In this document: positions 1-57,689 of the stretch, piece after piece
How positions within the stretch are numbered: position 1 is the stretch's first letter
Layout of the letters: the number at the start of each line of letters is the position of its first letter
Sequence record: OZ346219.1
Source of the DNA: a phage
Strand: one strand, 5' to 3'
DNA length: 64,000 nucleotides
The notes under the pieces: generated by a model
What the model saw: only the letters and a program-made list of their open reading frames with translations
What the model was told of the DNA's origin: nothing
Databases searched by the model: none
Made by a program: the position numbers and the translations under genes

Positions 1-632
1 CCGCCTAGCTTAGAATGCTGTTTACTGTACCCTTTATTAATCTGCAACGGTTTCTTTTCTGGCATTATAAAGCCTTGTCCGGTCCATAAGCAAGTCTTTT
101 TCGGGTACATATCACGGGCGGCGATATACTCAGGAAAAGTAGGATGTTTATCATCTTCCGGCAAATAACCGCCATATTCCCACGGGTGGAACATGTAATC
201 AGGCTTACGCCACATGCTAGAGATAACGCTTACAGGATTCTCTATCATGTAGGGAACTCCTAGCCATTCACCCAAATAAGCGGTTATTTTAGCTGCCCTT
301 ACATCATGAACTTGAATCAATGGTCCTTGTTCTCGTTTCTTTCGTTCAAAGTGTGCAGCGCCACTAACAGCTAAATTGGTGCACGGTGGGAATGCAAAGA
401 TAATATCCGGTTTCCCCCATTCAAGGTCCATTGCTCTTTCCAGCCAGTTCAAATCAATCCAGGTGTTTACATAGGTAATGTTTGGATGTTCAAATCTGGT
501 ATTATACTTTTTGTATGTGCCGTGGTCGCCATCATCAGCATTAAAGCAGATCACCTTATGACCTGCTTTAGCCCATTCTAGCCCCATTATCCCCGATCCG
601 TCAAAGTTACAGAATATTAATTTTTGTTTCAT
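1..632 (-). CDS. putative DNA (cytosine-5)-methyltransferase-like protein, N-terminal part only (gene runs off the window start)
   Basis: Open minus-strand frame from ATG at 630-632 to position 1, over 200 codons with no stop; hand translation MKQKLIFCNFDGSG...FAFPPCTNLAVSG...MIENP shows FxGxG, PPC and ENV-like motifs; not in ORF track because truncated. Confidence 0.45.
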   Translation of the reverse strand, partial: MKQKLIFCNFDGSGIMGLEWAKAGHKVICFNADDGDHGTYKKYNTRFEHPNITYVNTWIDLNWLERAMDLEWGKPDIIFAFPPCTNLAVSGAAHFERKKREQGPLIQVHDVRAAKITAYLGEWLGVPYMIENPVSVISSMWRKPDYMFHPWEYGGYLPEDDKHPTFPEYIAARDMYPKKTCLWTGQGFIMPEKKPLQINKGYSKQHSKLG

Positions 633-874
633 ATACGCCCCTTTAATCCAACACAGATTTTAGAAGGTTCTTTGCCGTGCCACATTAAGTAAAGTCCGTT
701 AATGCGGCCTTGTTTTGTATATGATTCTTTTCTGATCTTCTTATAGTGTCGTGTTTCCTCAACTGATTGTTTAGAATACCAATCATAAAGGAAGAGGCAC
801 AAAGGCCAACCATTAGCGGCCTTTGTGCAGTTATTAAGAAATTCCTTATTGCGTTTAATTAATTTTCTTTTCAC
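629..874 (-). CDS. hypothetical protein (81 aa)
   Basis: ORF in the minus-strand small-gene array; abuts neighbours with 4-nt overlaps. Confidence 0.4.
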   Translation of the reverse strand: MKRKLIKRNKEFLNNCTKAANGWPLCLFLYDWYSKQSVEETRHYKKIRKESYTKQGRINGLYLMWHGKEPSKICVGLKGRI

Positions 875-1122
875 GCTGCCCCCATTGGTTTGATAGTAAC
901 AGAATCTAAAAGACCTTTGTTAGCCAGTTCGCGGCAAGTTTTCAGATCCGCAACTTCCCAGCCAGCCGCAATCAGGTTATCAATGAGGCTGTTAGCAACT
1001 TCTTCGCTCATGAAAGAGCACTGTTTGCCGATGGTGTAGCGTACACGCTGTAATTTCAGTTTACGGAAGCCTTTAACGTTCAGGTCTTTAGCGATTTTCT
1101 TTGCGGTTTCGATGTTAGCCAT
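871..1122 (-). CDS. hypothetical protein (83 aa)
   Basis: ORF directly downstream of promoter cassette 1163-1191; GGAG 8 nt before ATG. Confidence 0.45.
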   Translation of the reverse strand: MANIETAKKIAKDLNVKGFRKLKLQRVRYTIGKQCSFMSEEVANSLIDNLIAAGWEVADLKTCRELANKGLLDSVTIKPMGAA

Positions 1123-1162: not shown

Positions 1163-1191
1163 ATTGTAGGGGAGTTATCCTCCCCTGTCAA
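1163..1191 (-). promoter_or_regulatory. early-type promoter cassette (sigma70-like) with spacer palindrome
   Basis: Minus strand TTGACA, 17-bp spacer GGGGAGGATAACTCCCC, TACAAT; A-rich upstream; conserved leader with GGAG. Confidence 0.6.
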
Positions 1192-1205: not shown

Positions 1206-1373
1206 TTATTTGTTAATTTCCGGTGCGTTGCTCGGATAGTAACCTTCTTTAACACCCAGATATTTTGCAACCATCCCTACAATCTTCTGTGCTACTACAA
1301 TGTCAAATTTCAGATAATCTTCGCCGTGGGTTTCAATGATATATGCTTCACATGCTGCTTTAGTCTCGAACAT
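1206..1373 (-). CDS. small hypothetical protein (55 aa), duplicate copy 1
   Basis: Hand translation MFETKAACEAYIIETHGEDYLKFDIVVAQKIVGMVAKYLGVKEGYYPSNAPEINK; near-identical second copy at 4492-4659; promoter cassette upstream. Confidence 0.4.
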   Translation of the reverse strand: MFETKAACEAYIIETHGEDYLKFDIVVAQKIVGMVAKYLGVKEGYYPSNAPEINK

Positions 1374-2929: not shown

Positions 2930-3223
2930 TTATAAAATAATTTTTTGATATTTTTCTATGATGTTTGTGTAGGTCACGTCAACCGCTAGCACCGTTGCTT
3001 CGAATCCACCGTTTAGCCAATGGCTATGATCATGATCGTGAAAGAAACCAAGACCAGTACGAAGACCTTCTTTATATTCGGCGCGTACATTTAGATCATC
3101 ATCGATAAACAGATAAAACCATGAATTTTTACTAGGATTGATGATACAACCTTTCAGATTAGGGAGAATATCACGACTAAGAATAAACTTATCACCTACT
3201 TTGAACATAATATTAGTCCTCAT
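2930..3223 (-). CDS. small protein, HxHW paralog family member B
   Basis: 97 aa; FYLFIDDDL...HDHDHSHW...VLAVDV. Confidence 0.5.
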   Translation of the reverse strand: MRTNIMFKVGDKFILSRDILPNLKGCIINPSKNSWFYLFIDDDLNVRAEYKEGLRTGLGFFHDHDHSHWLNGGFEATVLAVDVTYTNIIEKYQKIIL

Positions 3224-3533
3224 TTATAAGGTCAAACCAATTGTTTTTCGCATAATGCTTAATGCGTGCTTGATCTGCTTCCGCTGGTGATAGATTCCAT
3301 GCAACCACTACAACTTCTGACGCATCGTCATCCGTTTCTGATACCCAATGATTGTGATTCATACAGTTATTTGCGATCGAGTGAGCAAATGATTTCATCA
3401 CTGGAGACGTATAATCATAGTAACGGATTTTCAGATTTTCATCAACGTACAAATAGATCGTATAAGGTTTATATTCAGTAACCAGTAACAGACAGTTACG
3501 CAATTCTGGGAAAATCTTTTTAGTTAATTTCAT
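3213..3533 (-). CDS. small protein, HxHW paralog family member C (divergent)
   Basis: Start trimmed to internal Met (MKLTKK); IYLYVDENL...NHNHW...VVVVAW. Confidence 0.4.
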   Translation of the reverse strand: MKLTKKIFPELRNCLLLVTEYKPYTIYLYVDENLKIRYYDYTSPVMKSFAHSIANNCMNHNHWVSETDDDASEVVVVAWNLSPAEADQARIKHYAKNNWFDLINED

Positions 3534-3534
3534 T

Positions 3535-3753
3535 TTATAATCCTCGGTCGCGGCTATAGTACACGGTACGCCATACAATTTCATGTTTCGTGTCGCTCCA
3601 GCACACGATCTCATTTACTCTTAAATCTTTGTTATCAACAAAAGATGAACATTGTGACGCTTCTTTCATCATTTTATCTGCTGTTTTCTCATCAAATACA
3701 GCACAGATTTCTTTATACACTCGATAATCTTTGAATTGACTCTGAATACCCAT
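3535..3753 (-). CDS. small hypothetical protein, paralog of 3713-3976
   Basis: FKDYRVYKEICAVFDEKTADKMMKEASQCSSF versus FKEYKAYQQILRVYAPEFAEKMMEDASKCPSF in the neighbour; start uncertain. Confidence 0.35.
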   Translation of the reverse strand: MGIQSQFKDYRVYKEICAVFDEKTADKMMKEASQCSSFVDNKDLRVNEIVCWSDTKHEIVWRTVYYSRDRGL

Positions 3754-3976
3754 AATTAACACCATTCCAACCAATTGTTTTTGAGAAAACGTTTATCCAC
3801 TGTTGAGTGTAACATGTTTCTTTCCATGATACAATACGAGTAGAATAATGGTTTTTGTTTCCAGAAAAGGACGGGCATTTTGATGCATCTTCCATCATCT
3901 TTTCGGCGAACTCTGGTGCGTATACTCGCAGGATCTGTTGATATGCTTTGTATTCTTTAAATTTGCTCATAATCAT
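3713..3976 (-). CDS. small hypothetical protein, paralog of 3535-3753
   Basis: 87-aa ORF; tandem paralog pair. Confidence 0.4.
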   Translation of the reverse strand: MIMSKFKEYKAYQQILRVYAPEFAEKMMEDASKCPSFSGNKNHYSTRIVSWKETCYTQQWINVFSKTIGWNGVNYGYSESIQRLSSV

Positions 3977-4235
3977 TCACTACCTTATCAGCTTCTTTTG
4001 TTGTTTTTACATCAACTGCGATAACTCGTAAAGGTTCGTCATGGTTCCACCAGTGGTCATGAATATCAGCTTGTGATTTATCACCAAAGGAATCACGAAT
4101 ATCATTTTTACATTTATAGCTAATGTGACCTTCATAGTCAACATAAAGGTAATTATCGAAAATCGGCGTTTTTAAGATCATACCGAAAAATCTTTCTTTG
4201 TGTGTCTTATCCAGCGTTGCAGTAATTCGCATCAT
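3957..4235 (-). CDS. small protein, HxHW paralog family member D
   Basis: 92 aa; YLYVDYEGHISY...DIHDHWW...VIAVDV; promoter cassette 4460-4488 upstream. Confidence 0.5.
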   Translation of the reverse strand: MMRITATLDKTHKERFFGMILKTPIFDNYLYVDYEGHISYKCKNDIRDSFGDKSQADIHDHWWNHDEPLRVIAVDVKTTKEADKVVNDYEQI

Positions 4236-4491: not shown

Positions 4492-4659
4492 TTATTTGTT
4501 AATTTCCGGTGCGTTGCTCGGATAGTAACCTTCTTTAACACCCAGATATTTTGCAACCATTCCGGTGATCTTCTGTGCTACTACGATATCGAATTTCAGG
4601 TAGTCTTCACCGTGGTTTGCTACAATGTATGCTTCGCATTCTGCTTTAGTCTGGAACAT
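4492..4659 (-). CDS. small hypothetical protein (55 aa), duplicate copy 2
   Basis: Same length and near-identical nucleotide sequence to 1206-1373; own promoter cassette 4692-4720. Confidence 0.4.
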   Translation of the reverse strand: MFQTKAECEAYIVANHGEDYLKFDIVVAQKITGMVAKYLGVKEGYYPSNAPEINK

Positions 4660-4691: not shown

Positions 4692-4720
4692 ATTATAGGG
4701 GATCACCGATCCCCTGTCAA
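4692..4720 (-). promoter_or_regulatory. early-type promoter cassette with spacer palindrome
   Basis: TTGACA, spacer GGGGATCGGTGATCCCC, TATAAT. Confidence 0.6.
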
Positions 4721-4725
4721 CAACT

Positions 4726-5019
4726 TTATAATGCTTTATATGCGTATTTCATAAATTTGTCTGCCACTTCATTGGCATGTTCAGATTCTACGCCTGATTC
4801 TAGAACAATAGCTAGGTCGGTTTCGTCATTCCCGCCGTACCAATGATTTGATGTTCGATTTTTTTCAATTGGAAATTGGTCACTTTTATCTGTGCGACAA
4901 AATACATCTAAATGCTCGTCGATGTAAAAGATCCAATCTTCATAAAGAATAACGGTATTAGCCAGATTTTTATTGCCTTCAACGAAAGGTTCGGCTACAA
5001 ACAAATTAGTATGTTCCAT
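4726..5019 (-). CDS. small protein, HxHW paralog family member E (divergent)
   Basis: Start trimmed to Met20; IFYIDEHLDVF...TSNHW...AIVLESGVE. Confidence 0.4.
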   Translation of the reverse strand: MEHTNLFVAEPFVEGNKNLANTVILYEDWIFYIDEHLDVFCRTDKSDQFPIEKNRTSNHWYGGNDETDLAIVLESGVESEHANEVADKFMKYAYKAL

Positions 5020-5035
5020 AGTATTTTCCTCAAAA

Positions 5036-5227
5036 TTATACAGCTTCGTAAACTTCCCAATGTCCAACACCAGCACGCTTAACGAAAAGGTTTTCTTTTA
5101 TGTTATTCATAAACGTCTGGATGGATTTAATGCGGTTTGAAGGTTTCCATTCTTCGTTGGCATTGCGTCGATACATCATAACATTACCAGTTCGCTTATA
5201 TTCAGCAACCATTTTAAGACCACACAT
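5036..5227 (-). CDS. hypothetical protein (63 aa)
   Basis: ORF in minus-strand array. Confidence 0.35.
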   Translation of the reverse strand: MCGLKMVAEYKRTGNVMMYRRNANEEWKPSNRIKSIQTFMNNIKENLFVKRAGVGHWEVYEAV

Positions 5228-5283: not shown

Positions 5284-5586
5284 TTACGCAAAATGGCGTG
5301 TCAATGCTTCTTTTGCTGTTCCGCTAAGATTCTCGATCTCTCCTGGCATAACCTCAACCGCAAGAACTTCTACAACATCCTCTGATCCTAACCAGTGAGT
5401 ATGACCTTTGTAGAACTTGATATCCCATTTATCGCTATCGCTAGCCCACCACACATCACCGTCGATAAAGTTGATGTAAAGCACACTACGACACATTGAA
5501 TTAATTACTTTCAATACTGCGCCTTTCATCTCTTCCACGGTATGGTCTTCCATTTTGAAGACCTCGCCTACCTTAACTTTTGCCAT
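5284..5586 (-). CDS. small protein, HxHW paralog family member F
   Basis: 100 aa; LYINFIDGDVWW...KGHTHW...VLAVEV. Confidence 0.5.
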   Translation of the reverse strand: MAKVKVGEVFKMEDHTVEEMKGAVLKVINSMCRSVLYINFIDGDVWWASDSDKWDIKFYKGHTHWLGSEDVVEVLAVEVMPGEIENLSGTAKEALTRHFA

Positions 5587-8224: not shown

Positions 8225-8684
8225 CTCGTTTTGTTAAACGTTCACGAATATCATTGAGGATACTACAAAATTCCGATTCAGTCAATATAGTCTTTAACGG
8301 ATCAGTTCCACCTATACTATGACGTAATTTCTTATTTCCGGTAGCGAGTAATGCTTTACAAAATTCTGGGTTATTCCGTGCCATCGTAACAAATGCCAGA
8401 TGCACCAGTCTGTAATAATGCTCACTCATTCGATGAATCGGGCGACCCTGAAAATATAACAGGTGATTCTCAATCTTTTCAGTTCTTCCGGTTCTTTTTG
8501 CTTTGCCACCGTGCATCAAAAAGATTTCTCTTTGTCTCTGAGGGTTCTTAAATCTTAGCCCCTGTAAAAATCCTTCTGTGCTGTTAATATCGCAACCAAA
8601 TAAACGGAATGGTCTTTTATTGAAATTACTCAATTCACCCGATGGATAAGGTCCACCCGCATAGATATCAATTTCAGAAGTCAT
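8205..8684 (-). CDS. NADAR/YbiA-like domain protein
   Basis: IDIYAGGPYPSGELSNF...STEGFLQGLRF...ALLATGNKKL resembles YbiA/NADAR signature (FY..G.FSNF...SEHYFQA.KF...LL.T). Confidence 0.5.
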   Translation of the reverse strand: MTSEIDIYAGGPYPSGELSNFNKRPFRLFGCDINSTEGFLQGLRFKNPQRQREIFLMHGGKAKRTGRTEKIENHLLYFQGRPIHRMSEHYYRLVHLAFVTMARNNPEFCKALLATGNKKLRHSIGGTDPLKTILTESEFCSILNDIRERLTKRGENVNS

Positions 8685-8859
8685 TGAAACTAATCTCGCT
8701 AATCAGAGAGAACGGATCATAATCGTCATTAGGAATATCGATAGTAATCGAATGAGGATTTACCCATACACCAAACTGGTCTTCTTCGGTGAATACTTCG
8801 GTATGGATTTCGTGGATGTTTACATTCATAGTTTTCATAATAAATTCCTTAATAATCAA
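8674..8859 (-). CDS. hypothetical protein (61 aa)
   Basis: ORF between NADAR-like gene and gene 31. Confidence 0.3.
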   Translation of the reverse strand: MIIKEFIMKTMNVNIHEIHTEVFTEEDQFGVWVNPHSITIDIPNDDYDPFSLISEISFNDF

Positions 8860-8919
8860 TAACTTACAAAATCATATAGCCAAAATATAGGCGGGATTAT
8901 TTCCCGCCGTTTAAAATCA

Positions 8920-9243
8920 TTAACCGTAAACTACCACAATATTCTGTTTGTGCGTTACAGTCCATTTCAGGTCGATCTCTTCTTCCTTCTTAACGCCGTT
9001 AATAACGTCTGGATGAGGAACTTTATTCATCTTGCCATGTGGCAGTAGAACAGTTTTACCCAGCAATTCTTTATCTACCGTCTCGCCAATATCAATAATC
9101 TTACCTACCAGCGGAATCTCGCCCATAGTGCGCTTTTGCTCAATAATGATCCCAATAGAGCTTTTTACTTCTGTCCCTGCGCTTTCTGCTTTAGCTTCAA
9201 TGATCACATAGTCACCAAGTGCTTTAGGAGTTTTAACGGTCAT
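8920..9243 (-). CDS. 31: co-chaperonin GroES-like (T4 gp31-like)
   Basis: 107 aa; GDYVII...NKVPHP resembles gp31/GroES; T4-like position before cd. Confidence 0.7.
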   Translation of the reverse strand: MTVKTPKALGDYVIIEAKAESAGTEVKSSIGIIIEQKRTMGEIPLVGKIIDIGETVDKELLGKTVLLPHGKMNKVPHPDVINGVKKEEEIDLKWTVTHKQNIVVVYG

Positions 9244-9284
9244 AATTTTATTACCTCTTCAAATCAATACAGTTTAATGATGAA

Positions 9285-9605
9285 TTATTTATAAATTTCG
9301 ACGATCTGCGCTGGAGTCAGCCCGTCTACATTAATCAGAGTATCAAGCCCAAAACTACGGAAACCTTCAACTGCAATTTCATATACTGGCAAAGATGTTT
9401 CTGATTCTTTACGCGGTTTTTCAACATTAGGAACTAACCACTTTTCGTATGTTTCAAACGGCATCAGTGCCGGATCTCGCGTGGCGATCATCTCACGGAC
9501 AGTACCATCTTTCTTAGTAAACTGCAAAGAGTGAGTACCGACCGAAAACATTTTCTTTAGTGCTTCACGAAGTGCGATATTATCAACTTGTTCAGTCATT
9601 ATCAA
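9285..9605 (-). CDS. hypothetical protein (106 aa)
   Basis: ORF between cd and gene 31. Confidence 0.4.
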   Translation of the reverse strand: MIMTEQVDNIALREALKKMFSVGTHSLQFTKKDGTVREMIATRDPALMPFETYEKWLVPNVEKPRKESETSLPVYEIAVEGFRSFGLDTLINVDGLTPAQIVEIYK

Positions 9606-10098
9606 TACCCTTCAAATCAGTCAATAATGCTTTTGGAATACGCGTGATCGTAATATCTGCATTATTCAGAATATCAGCCCAATCACGCCCACCATTTCGG
9701 TCATATGTGTCGCAATAGTATAGATGTTTGATTCCACTGTTTGCAATTGCTTTAGCGCAATCTGGACAAGGTGAAGCAGTGCACCACATACTAGCGCCTT
9801 CAATCGATACACCGCTACGGGCAGCAAACAAAATAGCATTTAATTCAGCGTGGATCTCGTTTTTATGTGACCATGCACTATGCTCTGGCCGTTTTTCTGG
9901 GATCATTTTGCCGTCATCATCCAGCCAACCGCTTTTATGTGCATGACAGCTACAATTTACTTGCCCTGCTGGAGTGCCGTTAAATCCAGTAGAAATGATT
10001 CGCCCGTCTTTTTCAATTAGTGCGCCTACCTTCCACGAAACACATTTAGAGTTCTTTGCGATTAGATAGGCGATCTGCATGTAAGTTTGTGACAACAT
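9592..10098 (-). CDS. cd: dCMP deaminase
   Basis: 168 aa; cytidine/dCMP deaminase zinc motifs HAELNAI and PCPDC. Confidence 0.9.
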   Translation of the reverse strand: MLSQTYMQIAYLIAKNSKCVSWKVGALIEKDGRIISTGFNGTPAGQVNCSCHAHKSGWLDDDGKMIPEKRPEHSAWSHKNEIHAELNAILFAARSGVSIEGASMWCTASPCPDCAKAIANSGIKHLYYCDTYDRNGGRDWADILNNADITITRIPKALLTDLKGIDND

Positions 10099-14928: not shown

Positions 14929-15405
14929 TTAATCATGACCGTGATTTGCAATATCCGCTCGCGTCTTATCTTTGTGATTTCCTACGTCAAAGACACGATA
15001 ACCATTTTCACGCAAAACTTTAATCACTTCTGGGTTATCCTCAAAGACTCCGACAACTTCATCTTTATCAAAGGATTTAATTACCTCTAATTTGATGTGA
15101 TAATCTTTACGGGAATCGGTACGGCCTCTCATAAAGATTTTATCAAAACACACCCCGTTAGAAATTAACCAATCAATTGTTTCCATGTAAGCATGTGAAC
15201 TTCGTCCGGTGAGGATGTAAATCAAATGCCCGTTGTCGGAAAGAGCATTGATAACACGGATTACATCGTAAATGGGGGAATCTCCCCCACATGCCTTGTT
15301 ATATTCGATCCATGACTCGACTTTATCAAGATTTTCGGTTGGCATCTTTGCTAGTCGATGCGTTGGATCTGTGATCGTAAAATCTAAATCGACAAAATAT
15401 ATCAT
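14929..15405 (-). CDS. HAD-superfamily phosphatase-like protein
   Basis: N-terminal FVDLDFTIT (DxDxT) motif; 158 aa; 4-nt overlap with nrdB stop. Confidence 0.55.
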   Translation of the reverse strand: MIYFVDLDFTITDPTHRLAKMPTENLDKVESWIEYNKACGGDSPIYDVIRVINALSDNGHLIYILTGRSSHAYMETIDWLISNGVCFDKIFMRGRTDSRKDYHIKLEVIKSFDKDEVVGVFEDNPEVIKVLRENGYRVFDVGNHKDKTRADIANHGHD

Positions 15406-16562
15406 AGATATTTCCCGAATCGGTTGTAGTCATCGTCTGTTAAATCGGTATTAACCTGAGATACCAGATACATAATCTCTACTTCCTGCGCCGCGTTTTG
15501 AACTTCGTCAGAGTTCAACCATTTACGCATCCACGGTAACGGATGACGACGAACACTAAACGGGCTTTTCAGTCCGGCAGCACGCATACGGGAATCTGCC
15601 AGGTATTCTACATAGGTTTTCAGAATTTCCGGTGACAGGTTAGGAATTGCCCCCATTGCGAATAGGTGGTCTACCCATTCTTTTTCTTGCTCGACAACAT
15701 CCAGAAAGATTTTCGTTGCTTCGTCTTCAAGTTCTTCCGCAATCTGTTTCCACTCATCACCATCAGCCCCCGTTTGCCATTGACGAATAATGTATTGTGT
15801 GCCTTTTAAGTGAAGTTGTTCATCACGCGCAATAAATTTCATGATCTTCGCGTTGCCTTCCAGTAAACCACGTTCGGCAAAGCTGAAAGTACATGCAAAG
15901 GACACATAAAAACGAATTGCTTCCAGTGCATTGACGCAGTGTGCACACAGATAAATCGAAGCCATCAGATCTCGTTTTGTATCTTCAAAAAATCTTCTTG
16001 CATCATCTAATGCTGTCTGGTCGTCTCGTTCTTCCCAATAGCGGAGATCTTCTTTTGCATTCTCATACTTACGAATCCAATAAAGAACATCATCATAATA
16101 TTTCCCGATAGATTCCGCTCGCTTCATGATAGCAGGGTTATCGATGATCTGGTCGAACTCACTAGCCGGATCAATGAAACAGTTACGCATAATGTGTGTA
16201 TAGCTTCGGCTATGAATCGTTTCGCTGAATGTCCATGTTTGCAACCATGTATCGAGAGTTGGATCAGATACAATTGGACCAAATGCTGCGGACGGTGCGC
16301 GACCTTGAATAGAATCAAGTAATGTCTGATACTTCAAGTTTTCAGTAAAGAAACGCTTTTCAACGTCACCCATATTAAGATATTGAATGCGGTCGGTTGC
16401 AAGTGAAATTTCTTCGGGGCGCCAGAAAAATGACAATTGCTTTTCGATCAGTTCTTCAAATACTTGATGACGCTGAATATCATAGCGAGCGATACCCAAC
16501 CCACTACCCAGAAACATTGGTTCGTTCATAATATCAACATGTTCGCGGTTAAATACGCTCAT
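15402..16562 (-). CDS. nrdB: ribonucleotide reductase class Ia small subunit
   Basis: 386 aa uninterrupted ORF of NrdB length; paired with nrdA. Confidence 0.9.
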   Translation of the reverse strand: MSVFNREHVDIMNEPMFLGSGLGIARYDIQRHQVFEELIEKQLSFFWRPEEISLATDRIQYLNMGDVEKRFFTENLKYQTLLDSIQGRAPSAAFGPIVSDPTLDTWLQTWTFSETIHSRSYTHIMRNCFIDPASEFDQIIDNPAIMKRAESIGKYYDDVLYWIRKYENAKEDLRYWEERDDQTALDDARRFFEDTKRDLMASIYLCAHCVNALEAIRFYVSFACTFSFAERGLLEGNAKIMKFIARDEQLHLKGTQYIIRQWQTGADGDEWKQIAEELEDEATKIFLDVVEQEKEWVDHLFAMGAIPNLSPEILKTYVEYLADSRMRAAGLKSPFSVRRHPLPWMRKWLNSDEVQNAAQEVEIMYLVSQVNTDLTDDDYNRFGKYL

Positions 16563-16577
16563 TAATTCACCTCACTA

Positions 16578-16745
16578 TCACTTTTTAACACAAAAGAACT
16601 TAGTATTTCTGTTAACTTCGATATCCTGCTGCAATTCCTGCACAGCTTCAAAACAATTTTGATGTGATGAAAACTCTACGCTGGTAACAGTTCCTTTATT
16701 ATATGATCCTACGCTAACGGAAAGCAATAACCATAATGTAGCCAT
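16578..16745 (-). CDS. small hydrophobic-N-terminus protein (55 aa), tandem paralog
   Basis: Hand translation MATLWLLLSVSVGSYNKGTVTSVEF...FFCVKK; start overlaps upstream stop as TAATG. Confidence 0.35.
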   Translation of the reverse strand: MATLWLLLSVSVGSYNKGTVTSVEFSSHQNCFEAVQELQQDIEVNRNTKFFCVKK

Positions 16746-16918
16746 TAGTTCACCTTTTGTTTTTCAACGCAATATAGATTCATAAAGCGTTTATTGTCTT
16801 CACGGATAATCTCGCGAGCTTTAACGCAATCCTGCTTTGTTGCAAACTCAATGCTTGACATATTTCCGTAATTATACATTGAATTGCTGATTGCAATCAA
16901 TAACCATACAGTAGCCAT
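16745..16918 (-). CDS. small hydrophobic-N-terminus protein (57 aa), tandem paralog
   Basis: Hand translation MATVWLLIAISNSMYNYGNMSSIEF...LYCVEK; TAATG overlaps both sides. Confidence 0.35.
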   Translation of the reverse strand: MATVWLLIAISNSMYNYGNMSSIEFATKQDCVKAREIIREDNKRFMNLYCVEKQKVN

Positions 16919-17085
16919 TATTCGACAACCTCAAAGCATTTATCATCAGGAAGAATAGCCCATTCTATGCCGTATTCATCCTCAACGTAGTAGCAAGTCC
17001 CGTCATGTCGAGCATCATATACATCACCAACAACAAAGCTATCAGCTAGCTCAAAATCTACAGCAACACATTTTAATTTGGTCAT
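16918..17085 (-). CDS. small hypothetical protein (55 aa)
   Basis: Hand translation MTKLKCVAVDFELADSFVVGDVYDARHDGTCYYVEDEYG...; behind promoter cassette 17118-17146. Confidence 0.35.
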   Translation of the reverse strand: MTKLKCVAVDFELADSFVVGDVYDARHDGTCYYVEDEYGIEWAILPDDKCFEVVE

Positions 17086-17117
17086 AATAAAATCCTCACT
17101 TGTTTTTTGATGGTTGT

Positions 17118-17146
17118 ATTATAGCGGGGATTTCTCCCCGCGTCAA
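17118..17146 (-). promoter_or_regulatory. early-type promoter cassette with spacer palindrome
   Basis: TTGACG, spacer CGGGGAGAAATCCCCGC, TATAAT; precedes the three-ORF small-gene operon. Confidence 0.55.
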
Positions 17147-17154
17147 CACTTATT

Positions 17155-19398
17155 TTACAGCTTGCAAGATGAGCACTCGCTAGCGTCTTCCGTACCATCT
17201 GCACCATCACGCACGTTAGCGTAATACAGTGTCTTGAGGCCGTAATATTGAGCAAACAACATATCATCTAAAACATCAGCAATATCGACTTTACCAGTCT
17301 TATAAGTGCTTGGATCGTAGGATGTGTTGGAACTAATCGCCTGATCTACAAACTTCTGCATGATCGCTGCCAGTGTCAGATAAGGCTTGTTACCTTTCTT
17401 GATCAGTGTCCAAAGCAGGTCAATAACATCAGCATTATTCTCTACGTTCGGAATGACCTGATTAAATTGCCCTTCTTTCGATCCTTTAACCGATACAATC
17501 CCGCGAGGCGGTTCAATACCGTTTGTGCTGTTAGATACCTGAGAAGACGACTCACACGGCATCAGCGCCGAAAGTGTACTGTTACGAATGCCATATTTTT
17601 TCAGGTCTTCGCGCAGTTCTTCCCAATCCATCTCATACACCGGATCAACCAGTTCATCTACTGTCTTTTTGTACCAGTCGATAGGCAGTTCACCGCGACC
17701 ATAGCGTGTTTCGTGCATCAGTTCGCAAGCACCCTTCTCTTTAGCCAGTCGCACACTAGCCTTAATCAGAGCATATTGCAAGCGTTCAAACGTTTTATGC
17801 GTAAACTCGTTAGCGTCTTCATATGTGAAGAAATTATCTGCTAGATATGATGCAAAGTTAGTAACACCAACACCCAGAGAGCGACGTTTTTTGGCTGTCA
17901 GAGCTTGTTCTACAGGATAATCCTGATAATCTAACAGGTTGTCAAGTGCACGCACCATAACCATAGCAATGCGTTCTACTTCTTCCATATTTTCGATATC
18001 GAAATTACCTAAAACATATGCTGCCAAAGTACATAGGCTAATTTCTGAATCATCACGACCCATCGGTTTAGTAGGCAGTGCAATTTCACAACACAGGTTA
18101 GATTGTTTAATCGGTGCTACATTACGAATAAACGCCCCGTGATTGTTCATGTTGTCTGTGAACGTTGGGTAGATTCGACCAGTGTTAAAACGTTCAATTG
18201 CCACCGCTAAAAACAGGTCTTCGGCTTTAACACGAGTTTTACGAACACTCGGATCTTTTTCCAGTTTTTCGTAAAGTTGGCGGAAACCTTCCTCATCTCG
18301 GAAGTATAGATCCCACAACAAGCCACCCGCAACATCTGGACTAAACAGAGTAATGTAATCCCGTTTAAGGAATCGCTCTACCATCAGGTTATTAATCTGT
18401 ACGCCGTAGTCAAGATGGCGAATGCGGTTATCTTCCACGCCCTTATTGTTCTTTAACACAATCAGACTTTCAAACTCTAAATGCCACATTGGGTAATAGA
18501 GTGTCGCTGCCCCGCCACGAATACCGCCTTGTGAGCATGACTTAACGGCAGTCTGAAAATGTTTCCAGAATGGGATAACGCCAGTATGACGAACTTCACC
18601 ATGCCCGATCTTAGATCCTTCCGCGCGAATCATGCCAGCGTTGATACCGATACCAGCACGCTTGCTAATATACTTAATGATTGCATTTGCGGTTTCATTA
18701 ATACCCTGCAATGAGTCATCACTTTCGATCACCACACACGAACTAAATTGGCGTGTTGGGGTACGCACACCTGCCATAATCGGAGTAGGCAGAGAGATTT
18801 GCTTATTCGCAACCGCATTATAAAAATCAATCACATGTTCAAGTCGATTTTCGGTCTCTTCTTGATGCAAGCACATACCGATCAGCATATACGCAAATTG
18901 CGGTGTTTCGATGATTTTCTTAGTGCTGCGATCCTGAACAAGATATTTCTCTTTTAACTGCATCGCACCAGCATAGGTCATTTTAAAATCAAGTTTATGG
19001 TCGATGAATTTCTCCAGATATTCCACTTCTTCACGGGAATACTTTTGCAGAATTTCGCGATCATATTTTCCGGTTGCAATATTACGCTCAATATGGCTGT
19101 AAAAATCAATCGGTTGGAATTGACCGTATACTGATTTGCGAAGCGCGAACATTGCAAGGTTACTTGCTACATATTGATAATCGGGTGTTTCTACAGTAAT
19201 GTTATCTGCTGCGACCTTAATCAATACTTTCTGGATATCGTTGGTAGACATACCTTCTGTCAGAAGTGGTTCAACCATATCAAACAATTCATATGGATCA
19301 ACGTTATGACCTTCGGCTGCCGCTTCCAGAATTTTCATTACTTTTTCTTTTTCAAAAGGAACAGTCAGACCGGAAGACTTAACAACATTTTTAATCAT
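17155..19398 (-). CDS. nrdA: ribonucleotide reductase class Ia large subunit
   Basis: 747 aa; ATP-cone N-terminus, C-terminal CSSCKL-type Cys pair. Confidence 0.95.
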   Translation of the reverse strand: MIKNVVKSSGLTVPFEKEKVMKILEAAAEGHNVDPYELFDMVEPLLTEGMSTNDIQKVLIKVAADNITVETPDYQYVASNLAMFALRKSVYGQFQPIDFYSHIERNIATGKYDREILQKYSREEVEYLEKFIDHKLDFKMTYAGAMQLKEKYLVQDRSTKKIIETPQFAYMLIGMCLHQEETENRLEHVIDFYNAVANKQISLPTPIMAGVRTPTRQFSSCVVIESDDSLQGINETANAIIKYISKRAGIGINAGMIRAEGSKIGHGEVRHTGVIPFWKHFQTAVKSCSQGGIRGGAATLYYPMWHLEFESLIVLKNNKGVEDNRIRHLDYGVQINNLMVERFLKRDYITLFSPDVAGGLLWDLYFRDEEGFRQLYEKLEKDPSVRKTRVKAEDLFLAVAIERFNTGRIYPTFTDNMNNHGAFIRNVAPIKQSNLCCEIALPTKPMGRDDSEISLCTLAAYVLGNFDIENMEEVERIAMVMVRALDNLLDYQDYPVEQALTAKKRRSLGVGVTNFASYLADNFFTYEDANEFTHKTFERLQYALIKASVRLAKEKGACELMHETRYGRGELPIDWYKKTVDELVDPVYEMDWEELREDLKKYGIRNSTLSALMPCESSSQVSNSTNGIEPPRGIVSVKGSKEGQFNQVIPNVENNADVIDLLWTLIKKGNKPYLTLAAIMQKFVDQAISSNTSYDPSTYKTGKVDIADVLDDMLFAQYYGLKTLYYANVRDGADGTEDASECSSCKL

Positions 19399-19466: not shown

Positions 19467-20699
19467 TTATACTGCCATTTGAGCGGTGATTGCTGGATGG
19501 CTTTGATAGTTGTGAATTTTAAAGTCTTTCGGAGTCTTTGTCAATACCTCATCTAAAGATTTAAATTCCGGCAACTCAATCGTTGGTTTATCAAACGGAA
19601 CACGGCTTAACTGTTCCATAACTTGATCAAAATGGTTTTTGTAAATGTGAGTATCTCCACCAGAGAAAATCAGTTCTCCTACCTCAAGATCACACATTTT
19701 CGCTATGATGTGAGTTAACAGCGCATAGCTGGCGACGTTAAAGGGCAAGCCTAAAAAGCTGTCTACGCTTCTCTGAAACCACATACAAGACAGTTTACCT
19801 TCATTGACGTAGAATTGCACGAAAGGATGACATACACCCAATACAGCATTATGTGTTCCTTGTACGTTCCATGAGTCAATAATGATCCGGCGATCCGTTG
19901 GATTGTTTTTAATTTGTTCAATCACGTTTTGTAACTGGTCTTCCCAAATCTTCGGGCGATAGACATATTCTTCATCGTCTTTAGTGCTCGATGTGTCTAC
20001 GTCCATACTAGCAAAGATCGTGGTATCTGGTGCTAAAATATCCCCACCCAGATAATCACTATCAAGCAGATAACCGAAATAACCATCATCTACCCATTCC
20101 TGGAATCCCCACAAGCAATATGCATCATTAACAAAATTAGATTGAGTCTTCCAGTGGTCTGCTACTAAGAATAGATTATACTCAGAATCAAACTCTTCAT
20201 AACGCATACCACGCCAGATAGCACATAAACGGTCTTCTGTTTCATTGGTTGGCGTAAAGTCTTCTACCCACGGGTGCTTAAATGTATGTGCATATTTGCT
20301 CTTAACGCGCTTAATTTTGATTTCACCGTGTGGATGAATCGGTTTGCGTCGCCATGCCATACCATACATATTGCCGACATTATAACCATTGAATCGCAAA
20401 GGATTCTTTTCTTTCATATCAAGACAGTTGCCGCGCCAAATGTCGAAGGCTTCTTCGTCAAACTTACCGCGTGTAATTTCCTGTAAGCGACGGCGGTCAA
20501 GTGATCCCTCCATAAACCATAGCAATTCGCCAATTACAGAGGCTGTAGCCATCTTTTTAGTGGTTAGTAAGGGGAAACCCTTGCTTAAATCAATTCGCAT
20601 CTCTGCGCCGAATTTAGAGAGCGTACCTACCCCCGTGCGGTCTTCACGAGGCCAGCCATTATCAAGAACATCACGCAATAGTTTCAAATATTCTTTCAT
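19467..20699 (-). CDS. td: thymidylate synthase with a large internal insertion
   Basis: N-terminal DRTGVGTLS...GFPLLTTKK and C-terminal DSFLGLPFNVASYALLTHIIAKMCDLEVGELIFSGGDTHIYKNH match ThyA; 410 aa instead of about 265-290. Confidence 0.9.
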   Translation of the reverse strand: MKEYLKLLRDVLDNGWPREDRTGVGTLSKFGAEMRIDLSKGFPLLTTKKMATASVIGELLWFMEGSLDRRRLQEITRGKFDEEAFDIWRGNCLDMKEKNPLRFNGYNVGNMYGMAWRRKPIHPHGEIKIKRVKSKYAHTFKHPWVEDFTPTNETEDRLCAIWRGMRYEEFDSEYNLFLVADHWKTQSNFVNDAYCLWGFQEWVDDGYFGYLLDSDYLGGDILAPDTTIFASMDVDTSSTKDDEEYVYRPKIWEDQLQNVIEQIKNNPTDRRIIIDSWNVQGTHNAVLGVCHPFVQFYVNEGKLSCMWFQRSVDSFLGLPFNVASYALLTHIIAKMCDLEVGELIFSGGDTHIYKNHFDQVMEQLSRVPFDKPTIELPEFKSLDEVLTKTPKDFKIHNYQSHPAITAQMAV

Positions 20700-57164: not shown

Positions 57165-57689
57165 TTAGTAGCCGCGTTCTTGACGGGCGAAGTTTTCAGC
57201 ATTTTTCAGATAGTACAGAATAAAGAGTTCTTGAGCGTCAATACCCAGCGGGATCATCTTTGACAGAATGAAGTGGATCGCGTCCACAAATTCAAATTTC
57301 ACTTCAAGCTGATCTTCCGGTGACAGTTCAGAGAATTTACGCGCTCGCGCTTCTCCGTGGTTCTTTTTCCACATTTTCCAGATTGCACTTGCATCTTTAC
57401 CATTGGACATTCCACCCAGCGATGTGTAAAGCTCTCGTGTTTCGTCTGCGATAGCGTCATCCATCCGTTGCATCCAATCCAGCATTTCACCGCAAGTCTC
57501 TAGCTTAGTTGGATTTGGGACCCAATCAAATTTTTCGGATAATGCAACCTGCAAACCAGTTTGCATTTCGAGCATCACCTGAAACGGATCTTTACCTTCT
57601 GCAATCGCGTGATGATATGCGGCGATAGCCGCGTTAATATCTTTTTCGTTAACCAGACCAGCACAAGAATTAAATTCTGACATATTCAC
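57165..57689 (-). CDS. 56: dCTP pyrophosphatase
   Basis: 174 aa; C-terminal SPEDQLEVKFEFVDAIHFIL...LYYLKNAENFARQERGY closely matches T4 gp56. Confidence 0.85.
   Translation of the reverse strand: MNMSEFNSCAGLVNEKDINAAIAAYHHAIAEGKDPFQVMLEMQTGLQVALSEKFDWVPNPTKLETCGEMLDWMQRMDDAIADETRELYTSLGGMSNGKDASAIWKMWKKNHGEARARKFSELSPEDQLEVKFEFVDAIHFILSKMIPLGIDAQELFILYYLKNAENFARQERGY

Follow-up and report, generated by a model that had tools for sequence, protein, structure and literature searches.

In this work, we present an analysis of a methyltransferase-like gene cut by the edge of a 64,000-nucleotide stretch of phage DNA (record OZ346219.1, referred to below as the window), whose product belongs to PHROG 757, a compact and phage-specific protein family that, as judged from sequence comparison, appears to descend from, or to be sister to, the DNA cytosine-C5 methyltransferases (C5-MTases). 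The pattern of its motifs indicates that the protein probably retains the chemistry-bearing half of a C5-MTase without the parts that read the sequence and close the cofactor pocket. With roughly even confidence we regard it as a stand-alone orphan C5-transferase, which would employ Cys84/Glu131 covalent catalysis with SAM, act sparsely on DNA and serve as a mobile accessory with an anti-restriction or epigenetic role. Databases and literature already contain the gene with its annotation, as well as the question of modification that it raises, and in the window it is a routine accessory of RB49-like phages, annotated before, with no sign of an exotic cytosine modification.

An earlier note on this DNA had described more than 200 stop-free codons on the minus strand from 632 to 1, and this was confirmed, since the translation gives 210 codons without a stop and contains all three motifs quoted there (FCNFDGSG, FAFPPCTNLAVSG and MIENP). 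The truncation was also correctly recognized: the gene is cut solely by the edge, and relatives encode an intact protein, the full-length homologs being of 717 nt and 238 aa, so that the window copy is devoid of the last 28 C-terminal codons. The accompanying advice to recover the whole ORF by extending the window "upstream" needs to be reversed, as the missing part is the 3′ end of the gene, located past the low-coordinate end (coordinate 1). The start codon is the ATG at 632–630 (minus strand), which is preceded, 5 nt upstream, by the Shine-Dalgarno-like AAAGGGG (644–638) and overlaps the TGA stop (631–629) of an upstream 81-aa ORF in the form ATGA. The gene and its motif-like segments are located as follows:

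1–632, minus strand: C5-methyltransferase-like gene, codons 1–210 of 238 (translation, PHROG 757, full-length homologs)
591–614, minus strand: motif I-like FCNFDGSG, residues 7–14, putative cofactor-binding loop after strand β1 (hhalign to the canonical LFaGiGG)
360–398, minus strand: motif IV-like FAFPPCTNLAVSG, residues 79–91, with the putative nucleophile Cys84 at nt 381–383 (conservation, Cys-to-Gly spacing)
234–248, minus strand: motif VI-like MIENP, residues 129–133, with Glu131 at nt 240–242 (aligned to the canonical ENV)
78–113, minus strand: motif VIII position DMYPKKTCLWTG, residues 174–185, strand β7 (D-x-Y-x-K-x-T-x-x-W in place of QxRxR)

By its sequence the window can be assigned to Krischvirus (RB49-like, Straboviridae, T4 superfamily), and its first 3 kb is 96–98.6% identical to dozens of Krischvirus genomes. 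The translated fragment is 99% identical (E 1e-147) to a 238-aa protein cluster (P0001), and the gene was found, at a coverage of at least 80%, in 57 of the 62 matching Krischvirus-type records, with RB49, Phi1, JSE, GEC-3S, TB34 and SAP among the carriers. The window and TB34 copies differ by nine synonymous codons and a single nonsynonymous one (1/210 residues), which points to purifying selection on the gene within Krischvirus; on such sequence grounds the frame is a real, selected gene and no chance ORF. In GenBank its relatives are labelled "DNA methyltransferase", "putative C-5 cytosine DNA methylase" or "Dcm".

The locus is situated in the minus-strand early region, between alt-type ADP-ribosyltransferase genes and the DNA ligase gene, among many small ORFs, each preceded by a sigma-70-like promoter. 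Counting from the nearest promoter-like site, two such ORFs lead to the methyltransferase-like gene:

1163–1191, minus strand: sigma-70-type promoter-like site, TTGACA / 17-nt spacer / TACAAT (11/12 matches; a consensus match only)
871–1122, minus strand: 83-aa ORF, first gene of the putative early transcription unit leading to the methyltransferase-like gene (no Pfam match)
629–874, minus strand: 81-aa ORF directly upstream of the methyltransferase-like gene, a hypothetical protein in relatives (no known domain)

A terminator-like hairpin (828–797) is placed within the 81-aa ORF. In the relatives, past the window edge, the gene is followed by an overlapping 110-aa zinc-ribbon ORF and then by a gene for a 172-aa GmrSD_N/DUF262 protein.

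The description "C5-cytosine MTase-like" given in the earlier note holds with respect to the hhalign alignment of motifs I–VI and to the invariant Cys and Glu, but the protein is not a canonical member of that class with respect to PF00145, QxRxR, the target-recognition domain (TRD) and motif X. The Pfam profile PF00145, with a curated gathering threshold of 22 bits, scored 13.3 bits with the fragment and 15.6 bits with the full-length protein, in a match limited to residues 10–100, and when it was compared with 60 divergent family members, E<1 was obtained in five of them and the cutoff was reached by none. A weak PADLOC MTase_II match covers the same region. No match was returned by an NCBIfam search with the protein, and PDB sequence searches, performed with the single protein and with two family profiles, gave nothing significant (HaeIII, E 1.1). 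Alignment by hhalign of the 60 members with seven canonical C5-MTases (E. coli Dcm and six phage enzymes) covered motifs I–VI over 116 columns (E 9e-5, probability 59%), and a second local match, a short one of 10 columns with E 0.11, joined TKTIRSLTPR to QHRPRRLTPR of Dcm, which is motif IX.

The AlphaFold2 model, obtained from 45 homologs (pLDDT 91, pTM 0.90), shows a class-I methyltransferase core of seven strands, after which come three short helices at the C-terminus, with a strand at residues 180–185, in the motif VIII position. Foldseek gave DNMT3B as the top match and DIM2 as that of the highest TM-score (0.50), and it also returned other class-I MTases, including the Cys-dependent RNA m5U enzymes RlmCD and RumA (E ~2e-4 to 2e-3). 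In the BFVD viral structure library, viral cytosine methyltransferases made up most of the named matches outside the family. The predicted fold is thus that of a class-I methyltransferase, nearest, as far as the model can tell, to the catalytic domains of C5-MTases.

Residue conservation was determined in the set of 60 divergent homologs, with identity down to 34%, while motif IX, which in this gene falls outside the window, was read from homologs 98–99% identical to it. Ten residues are invariant in all 60: C84, G91, E131, P133, P150, K178, T180, W183, P191 and R220. The motifs expected to carry the chemistry are well preserved. Motif IV takes the form FPPCT, with P82 in 56/60 and the canonical Gln replaced by Thr in 56/60, and the distance from its invariant Cys to the invariant Gly is the same as in the canonical PCQxFSxxG; motif VI is ENP, which aligns to ENV, with N132 kept in 57/60 between the two invariant residues. 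Motif IX reads I-R220-S-L-T-P-R-G, and besides its invariant Arg it has P224 in 56/60 and G226 in 59/60. The conserved residues of the cofactor site are F10, G14, D/N31 and D60. In motif I, canonically F-x-G-x-G-G, the window protein has F10-D-G12-S-G14, where the family shows F/Y10 in 55/60 and G14 in 47/60, and position 12, the first glycine of FxGxG, is variable across the family (Y/F/E/R/H). The acidic residues of motifs II/III are kept, D31 in 57/60 (Asn in the window clade) and D60 in 47/60. Within PHROG 757 it is the clade of Krischvirus and T1-like phages that has N31 for D31, together with a genuine G-x-G in motif I.

The remaining parts depart from the canonical pattern. At motif VIII, QxRxR, present in all seven canonical controls, is absent, and D174-x-Y176-x-K178-x-T180-x-x-W183 stands in its place, with Y176 found in 59/60 homologs. 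From motif VIII to motif IX there are 38–59 residues (median 42, 59 members) versus 69–173 in the seven canonical enzymes, so in the compact family the TRD would be almost missing. Motif X, G-N-(S/A)-V, was found in 0/59 members, in which the stretch after the motif IX Arg is only 16–44 residues long (median 20), versus at least 51 in the canonical enzymes; in the latter this motif touches the cofactor (HhaI N304; PMC12783734). According to the earlier note, a full-length protein without the remaining MTase motifs would speak against the assignment, and this applies in part, as the protein has neither QxRxR nor motif X nor a genuine TRD. SAM binding and cytosine specificity are therefore treated here as putative and unproven properties, since motif X is absent, the first FxGxG glycine is not conserved and QxRxR is missing.

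Compared with the PF00145 enzymes (M.HhaI, M.HaeIII, E. coli Dcm), the compact protein shares the class-I fold, the order of motifs I, IV, VI and IX, the invariant catalytic Cys and Glu and the identical motif IV Cys-to-Gly spacing, but it is smaller, 238 aa versus 269–472 aa, and it has PCT and ENP where they have PCQ and ENV. Its identity to the catalytic domain of DNMT3A/DNMT3B is 13–17%, and DNMT3 possesses motifs VIII and X, a CpG-reading TRD loop of ~50 residues and an oligomeric mode of action with DNMT3L, none of which was seen for the compact protein. CmoX, a phage DNA cytosine C5-carboxymethyltransferase (PDB 8yf3; PMC12783734), is in turn a full-size enzyme, with a 372-residue chain, a TRD and motif X; an arginine of motif X gives it selectivity towards Cx-SAM, and its gene is accompanied by those of CmoA and CmoY (PMC12783734), neither of which is annotated near the Krischvirus gene. 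CmoX-like carboxymethyl transfer via R225 of the "TPRGFA" stretch was considered and rejected, because this stretch aligns to motif IX (RRLTPRE). As motif X is absent, the CmoX determinant test does not apply to the compact protein.

The family is large and widespread. The fragment matched the PHROG 757 profile, named "DNA methyltransferase", with E 1.4e-74 and 251 bits, residues 1–210 being aligned to positions 12–193 of 247, and the window protein is a member with nothing substantive to set it apart from those of T1-like, rV5-like, Webervirus and RB49-like phages. More than 6,300 clusters were counted at 90% identity and 1,163 at 50%, nearly all of 210–260 aa, and the family occurs in 1,525 phage records, with Escherichia, Klebsiella, Salmonella, Campylobacter, Vibrio and others as hosts. 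The lineages include Krischvirus, Tunavirus, Webervirus, Vequintavirus, Seunavirus, Agtrevirus, phiKO2 and phages of Campylobacter and Vibrio, and the window protein is 47–63% identical to those of Tunavirus, Seunavirus, Vequintavirus and Webervirus. Across seven phage lineages carrying the gene no common neighbour was detected. The 81-aa, 110-aa and 172-aa ORFs were considered as conserved adjacent partners and rejected, as none has a detectable homolog beside the gene in the six other lineages checked (Seunavirus SSE121, Tunavirus pSf-2, Webervirus NJS1, Vequintavirus slur16, phiKO2 and Agtrevirus EspM4VN). Ten longer family members contained no informative domain fusions. The gene thus appears, from its genomic surroundings, to move as a solitary cassette. 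In BFVD the compact MTase domain was found in two giant helicase-fused phage proteins, which hints at DNA as the substrate. In the literature we found no biochemical or methylome characterisation of the PHROG 757 family or of its host phages.

Since the window encodes further enzymes of cytosine metabolism, the earlier note had taken a dCMP deaminase and a dCTPase as a clue to modified cytosine. Genes of both types are indeed present, the second as a gp56-like NTPase, but they are ordinary T4-type metabolism genes. The two are listed here together with the thymidylate synthase gene:

9595–10098: dCMP deaminase
19470–20699: thymidylate synthase (ThyA), the sole thymidylate-synthase-superfamily gene of the window-equivalent region
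57168–57683: gp56-like all-alpha NTP pyrophosphatase (dUTPase_2, 24.8 bits)

Neither dCMP hydroxymethylase (gp42) nor DNA glucosyltransferases are annotated in the region of the Krischvirus Delraymugoa that matches the window, and an annotation check of the window-equivalent region, which was not an exhaustive profile scan, gave no TET-like dioxygenase or glycosyltransferase. The neighbours of the methyltransferase-like gene, which are small hypothetical ORFs, the zinc-ribbon protein and the GmrSD_N protein, are not of the TET-pathway type. The Krischvirus genus is known to be devoid of dCMP hydroxymethylase and glucosyltransferases (PMC13390438, PMC4041780), and homologs of dCMP deaminase and gp56 are core genes, found also in phages with canonical DNA (PMC8056088). 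The combination of DenA, dCTPase-dUTPase homologs and a cytosine-methyltransferase homolog in RB49-group phages, without genes for non-canonical bases, was described in a 2021 study (PMC8056088), in which the question of cytosine modification in this group was already posed.

The special cytosine modification implied by the earlier note is not supported, as TB34 and RB49 carry the gene and their DNA is essentially canonical (PMC13390438, PMC4041780). HpaII and NheI, two enzymes that 5mC blocks, cut the DNA of RB49, which served as an unmodified control (PMC4041780). TB34, grown on DH5α, yielded no detectable modified nucleoside in HPLC/MS, and BrxU, whose substrates include 5mC DNA, did not cut its DNA (PMC13390438). 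The BASEL study of Drexlerviridae, which commonly carry the PHROG 757 family, found methyltransferase gene content to be uncorrelated with restriction resistance (PMC8594841). The sensitivity of the TB34 measurement deserves a separate remark. DH5α is a dcm+ strain. HPLC nevertheless gave no report of host Dcm methylation in the TB34 grown on it (PMC13390438), so there is still room for sparse site-specific 5mC in TB34.

In SAP, a phage 99.96% identical to TB34, the presence of 5-hmdC and gentiobiosyl-mdC was reported, with the pathway described as unknown (PMC13390438). A sequence difference at the gene was considered as the cause of this disparity and rejected, since a 1,501-nt region that includes the methyltransferase-like gene is identical in SAP and TB34, and the gene cannot account for the difference in modification. 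Seven Tequatrovirus phages from the same collection show the same modification profile as SAP (PMC13390438). This is compatible with a mixed DNA preparation, an interpretation that comes from the present analysis and not from the authors of that paper.

In the stand-alone orphan transferase that we favour, Cys84 would attack C6 of a flipped-out pyrimidine, Glu131 would protonate N3, and a one-carbon group from SAM would be moved to C5, in the manner of C5-MTases. Such an enzyme would mark phage DNA sparsely, as an orphan accessory that moves horizontally and has an anti-restriction or epigenetic role. With ~42 residues in the place of the TRD (canonical 70–170) and no motif X, its target rules should be minimal or unconventional, and it would not take part in wholesale cytosine replacement, as phages with the gene package essentially canonical cytosine. 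As counting against this explanation we recorded the sub-threshold Pfam score, the empty NCBIfam result and the insignificant PDB ones, the losses in motifs I, VIII and X, the failure to detect 5mC in TB34 DNA or to cut it with BrxU, and the non-correlation in Drexlerviridae.

The more unconventional readings owe their standing to the negative 5mC data and to what the protein does without, namely the TRD, the motif VIII arginines and motif X. It is possible, if rather unlikely, that the substrate or the transferred group differs from that of a classical dsDNA m5C enzyme, the candidates being RNA, single-stranded or replicating DNA, a free nucleotide and a carboxymethyl group. Models for an RNA substrate, to which we attach a similarly low likelihood, would be DNMT2 and the m5U enzymes RumA/RlmCD, and for a non-methyl group CmoX with host Cx-SAM. 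Besides the losses just named and Y-x-K-x-T in place of QxRxR, the Foldseek matches to RlmCD and RumA favour a departure of this kind, and a non-DNA target fits the absence of detectable 5mC in TB34 and RB49 (PMC13390438, PMC4041780); yet the longest and best structural matches are DNA C5-MTases, the motif IX-like RSLTPR is kept, and the domain is fused to helicases in giant phage proteins. Carboxymethyl transfer in particular is opposed by the absence from the family of motif X, the location of the CmoX determinant Arg (PMC12783734). That TB34 showed non-canonical nucleosides of no kind (PMC13390438) also counts against a different substrate or transferred group. In its family-wide form, which we consider doubtful in equal measure, PHROG 757 would be a pyrimidine-C5 transferase devoid of TRD and motif X, directed at RNA, ssDNA or replication intermediates, host DNA or a nucleotide, or dependent on an unusual cofactor. 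If true, the unconventional target or cofactor would explain both the carriers without detectable 5mC and the failure of MTase genes to predict restriction resistance.

The absence of the TRD and motif X would also be accommodated by a two-part enzyme, in which a separate phage or host protein gives target recognition and possibly motif X. We find such an arrangement improbable, and the same low weight goes to its conceivable analogues, the split M.AquI and M.EcoHK31I and DNMT3A/3L. The Krischvirus gene does overlap both its neighbours (the 81-aa ORF upstream and the 110-aa zinc-ribbon ORF downstream, with GmrSD_N/DUF262 behind it), and DNMT3, the best fold match, is oligomeric according to textbook knowledge, but these Krischvirus neighbours have no detectable homolog beside the gene in six other lineages and the longer members carry no informative fusion. 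That the protein does nothing but bind, for example by sequestering SAM, posing as a DNA-binding decoy or inhibiting a nuclease or a defence of the host, is in our opinion decidedly improbable: Cys84, Glu131, K178 and T180 are invariant in 60/60, as is typical where chemistry and not mere binding has been retained, and within the genus purifying selection acts on the gene, despite a degenerate motif I, the loss of motif X, a location among the clustered host-takeover genes of the hyperplastic early region, and the lack of modification detected in TB34 and RB49 DNA (PMC13390438, PMC4041780). A role in genome-wide cytosine modification, leading from 5mC to 5hmC or glucosylated bases with the help of the dCTPase and dCMP deaminase, is scarcely credible. 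It could draw on the bases reported in SAP, a member of a genus without hydroxymethylase and glucosyltransferases (PMC13390438), and on phage TET pathways, which begin with a C5-MTase (PMC8256090). It is contradicted by the identity of SAP and the unmodified TB34 over the 1,501 nt with the gene, by the unmodified DNA of TB34 and RB49 (PMC13390438, PMC4041780), by the lack of an annotated TET-like oxygenase or glycosyltransferase in the window-matching region, by the agreement of the SAP profile with seven Tequatrovirus phages, which we read as compatible with a mixed preparation, and by the occurrence of dCMP deaminase and gp56 homologs in canonical-DNA phages as well (PMC8056088).

For the Krischvirus genus, the result removes the gene as a simple explanation of the SAP/TB34 modification puzzle. 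Of modest interest at the level of the family is that a very abundant protein, with thousands of metagenomic clusters besides its phage records, receives the name "DNA cytosine methyltransferase" as a matter of course, although the TRD, the motif VIII arginines and motif X, which define such enzymes, are missing from it. Its real substrate, once known, would correct a widespread annotation, inform the predicted sensitivity of phages to restriction, Type IV, BREX and similar defences, and show what the minimal functional core of a C5-MTase is.

A minor observation concerns Delraymugoa, which encodes, between nrdA and nrdB, a second and canonical C5-MTase (CDS0088). We considered its presence in the window and rejected it, as the gene is absent from the window and from RB49, TB34 and SAP. 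The enzyme comes from the same genus as the compact gene and has the same predicted chemistry, but its match to PF00145 is a genuine one (69.8 bits), and this accessory type was found in four Krischvirus records only.

The region of the methyltransferase-like gene is the same in TB34 (locus L004) and SAP (locus L005) over 1,501 nt, without any difference, while the published contrast has SAP DNA modified and TB34 DNA unmodified (PMC13390438). The contrast is therefore not attributable to this region, which the identity rules out as its cause. Seven Tequatrovirus phages belonging to the same collection have a nucleoside profile equal to SAP's (PMC13390438), so that a mixed DNA preparation, in our own reading, seems worth excluding.

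In Delraymugoa, Aragogtheria, KMB43 and LF73P4, a further C5-cytosine methyltransferase is inserted between nrdA and nrdB; it is 279 aa long and a bona fide member of PF00145 (69.8 bits). This accessory gene is absent from the nrdA-nrdB interval of the window, RB49, TB34 and SAP, where three small ORFs occupy its place.

L006 (related Krischvirus locus) 8553-9392: accessory PF00145 C5-cytosine methyltransferase
Window 15402-16562: nrdB
Window 16563-17154: nrdA-nrdB interval
Window 17155-19398: nrdA

Directly 3' of the methyltransferase-like gene and tightly packed with it, Krischviruses carry two genes that fall just outside the window, past its position 1, and are listed here by their coordinates in the related locus L001; the linkage of the three is Krischvirus-specific.

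L001 5587-5919, minus strand: 110-aa zinc-ribbon protein
L001 5067-5585, minus strand: 172-aa GmrSD N-terminal protein

The latter consists of the GmrSD N-terminal (DUF262) domain only (Pfam 72.7 bits; PADLOC NsnA 6e-20), a domain known from Type IV restriction enzymes but here unaccompanied by any other. Just upstream of the methyltransferase-like gene, the annotated 81-aa ORF (629-874, minus strand) contains a strong terminator-like hairpin.

797-828, minus strand: 12-bp stem with 7 GC pairs, followed by a T-rich tail

Either this hairpin attenuates read-through into the methyltransferase-like gene, or the 5' part of the 81-aa ORF is non-coding.

The match of the thymidylate synthase to its Pfam profile is broken into two segments; in the second, residues 254-410 align with profile positions 110-266.

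19470-20699, minus strand: thymidylate synthase, 410 aa

This split match implies that the central part of the enzyme carries a predicted in-frame insertion of about 140 residues, for which no match was found in Pfam.

Small early ORFs (92-133 aa), read by eye, repeatedly show a signature of H-x-H-W followed by V(L/I)A(V/I)DV near the C-terminus, and their run suggests a paralog family amplified in tandem.

Signature-bearing small ORFs, all minus strand:
2202-2507
2930-3223
3213-3614
3957-4235
4726-5076
5284-5586

Four near-consensus sigma-70-type promoter-like sites of the window hold a GC-rich palindrome of 6-7 bp within the spacer, as in TTGACAGGGGATCGGTGATCCCCTATAAT; the remaining 15 promoter-like sites have no such palindrome.

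Promoter-like sites with spacer palindrome, all minus strand:
1163-1191
1407-1435
about 4692-4720
about 17118-17146

ORF translation also revealed a near-identical pair of 55-aa ORFs.

1206-1373, minus strand: 55-aa ORF, MFETKAACEAY...
4492-4659, minus strand: 55-aa ORF, MFQTKAECEAY...

Sharing 49 of 55 residues, separated by 3.3 kb and each with a palindrome-containing promoter-like site just upstream, they look like a local duplication within the early region.
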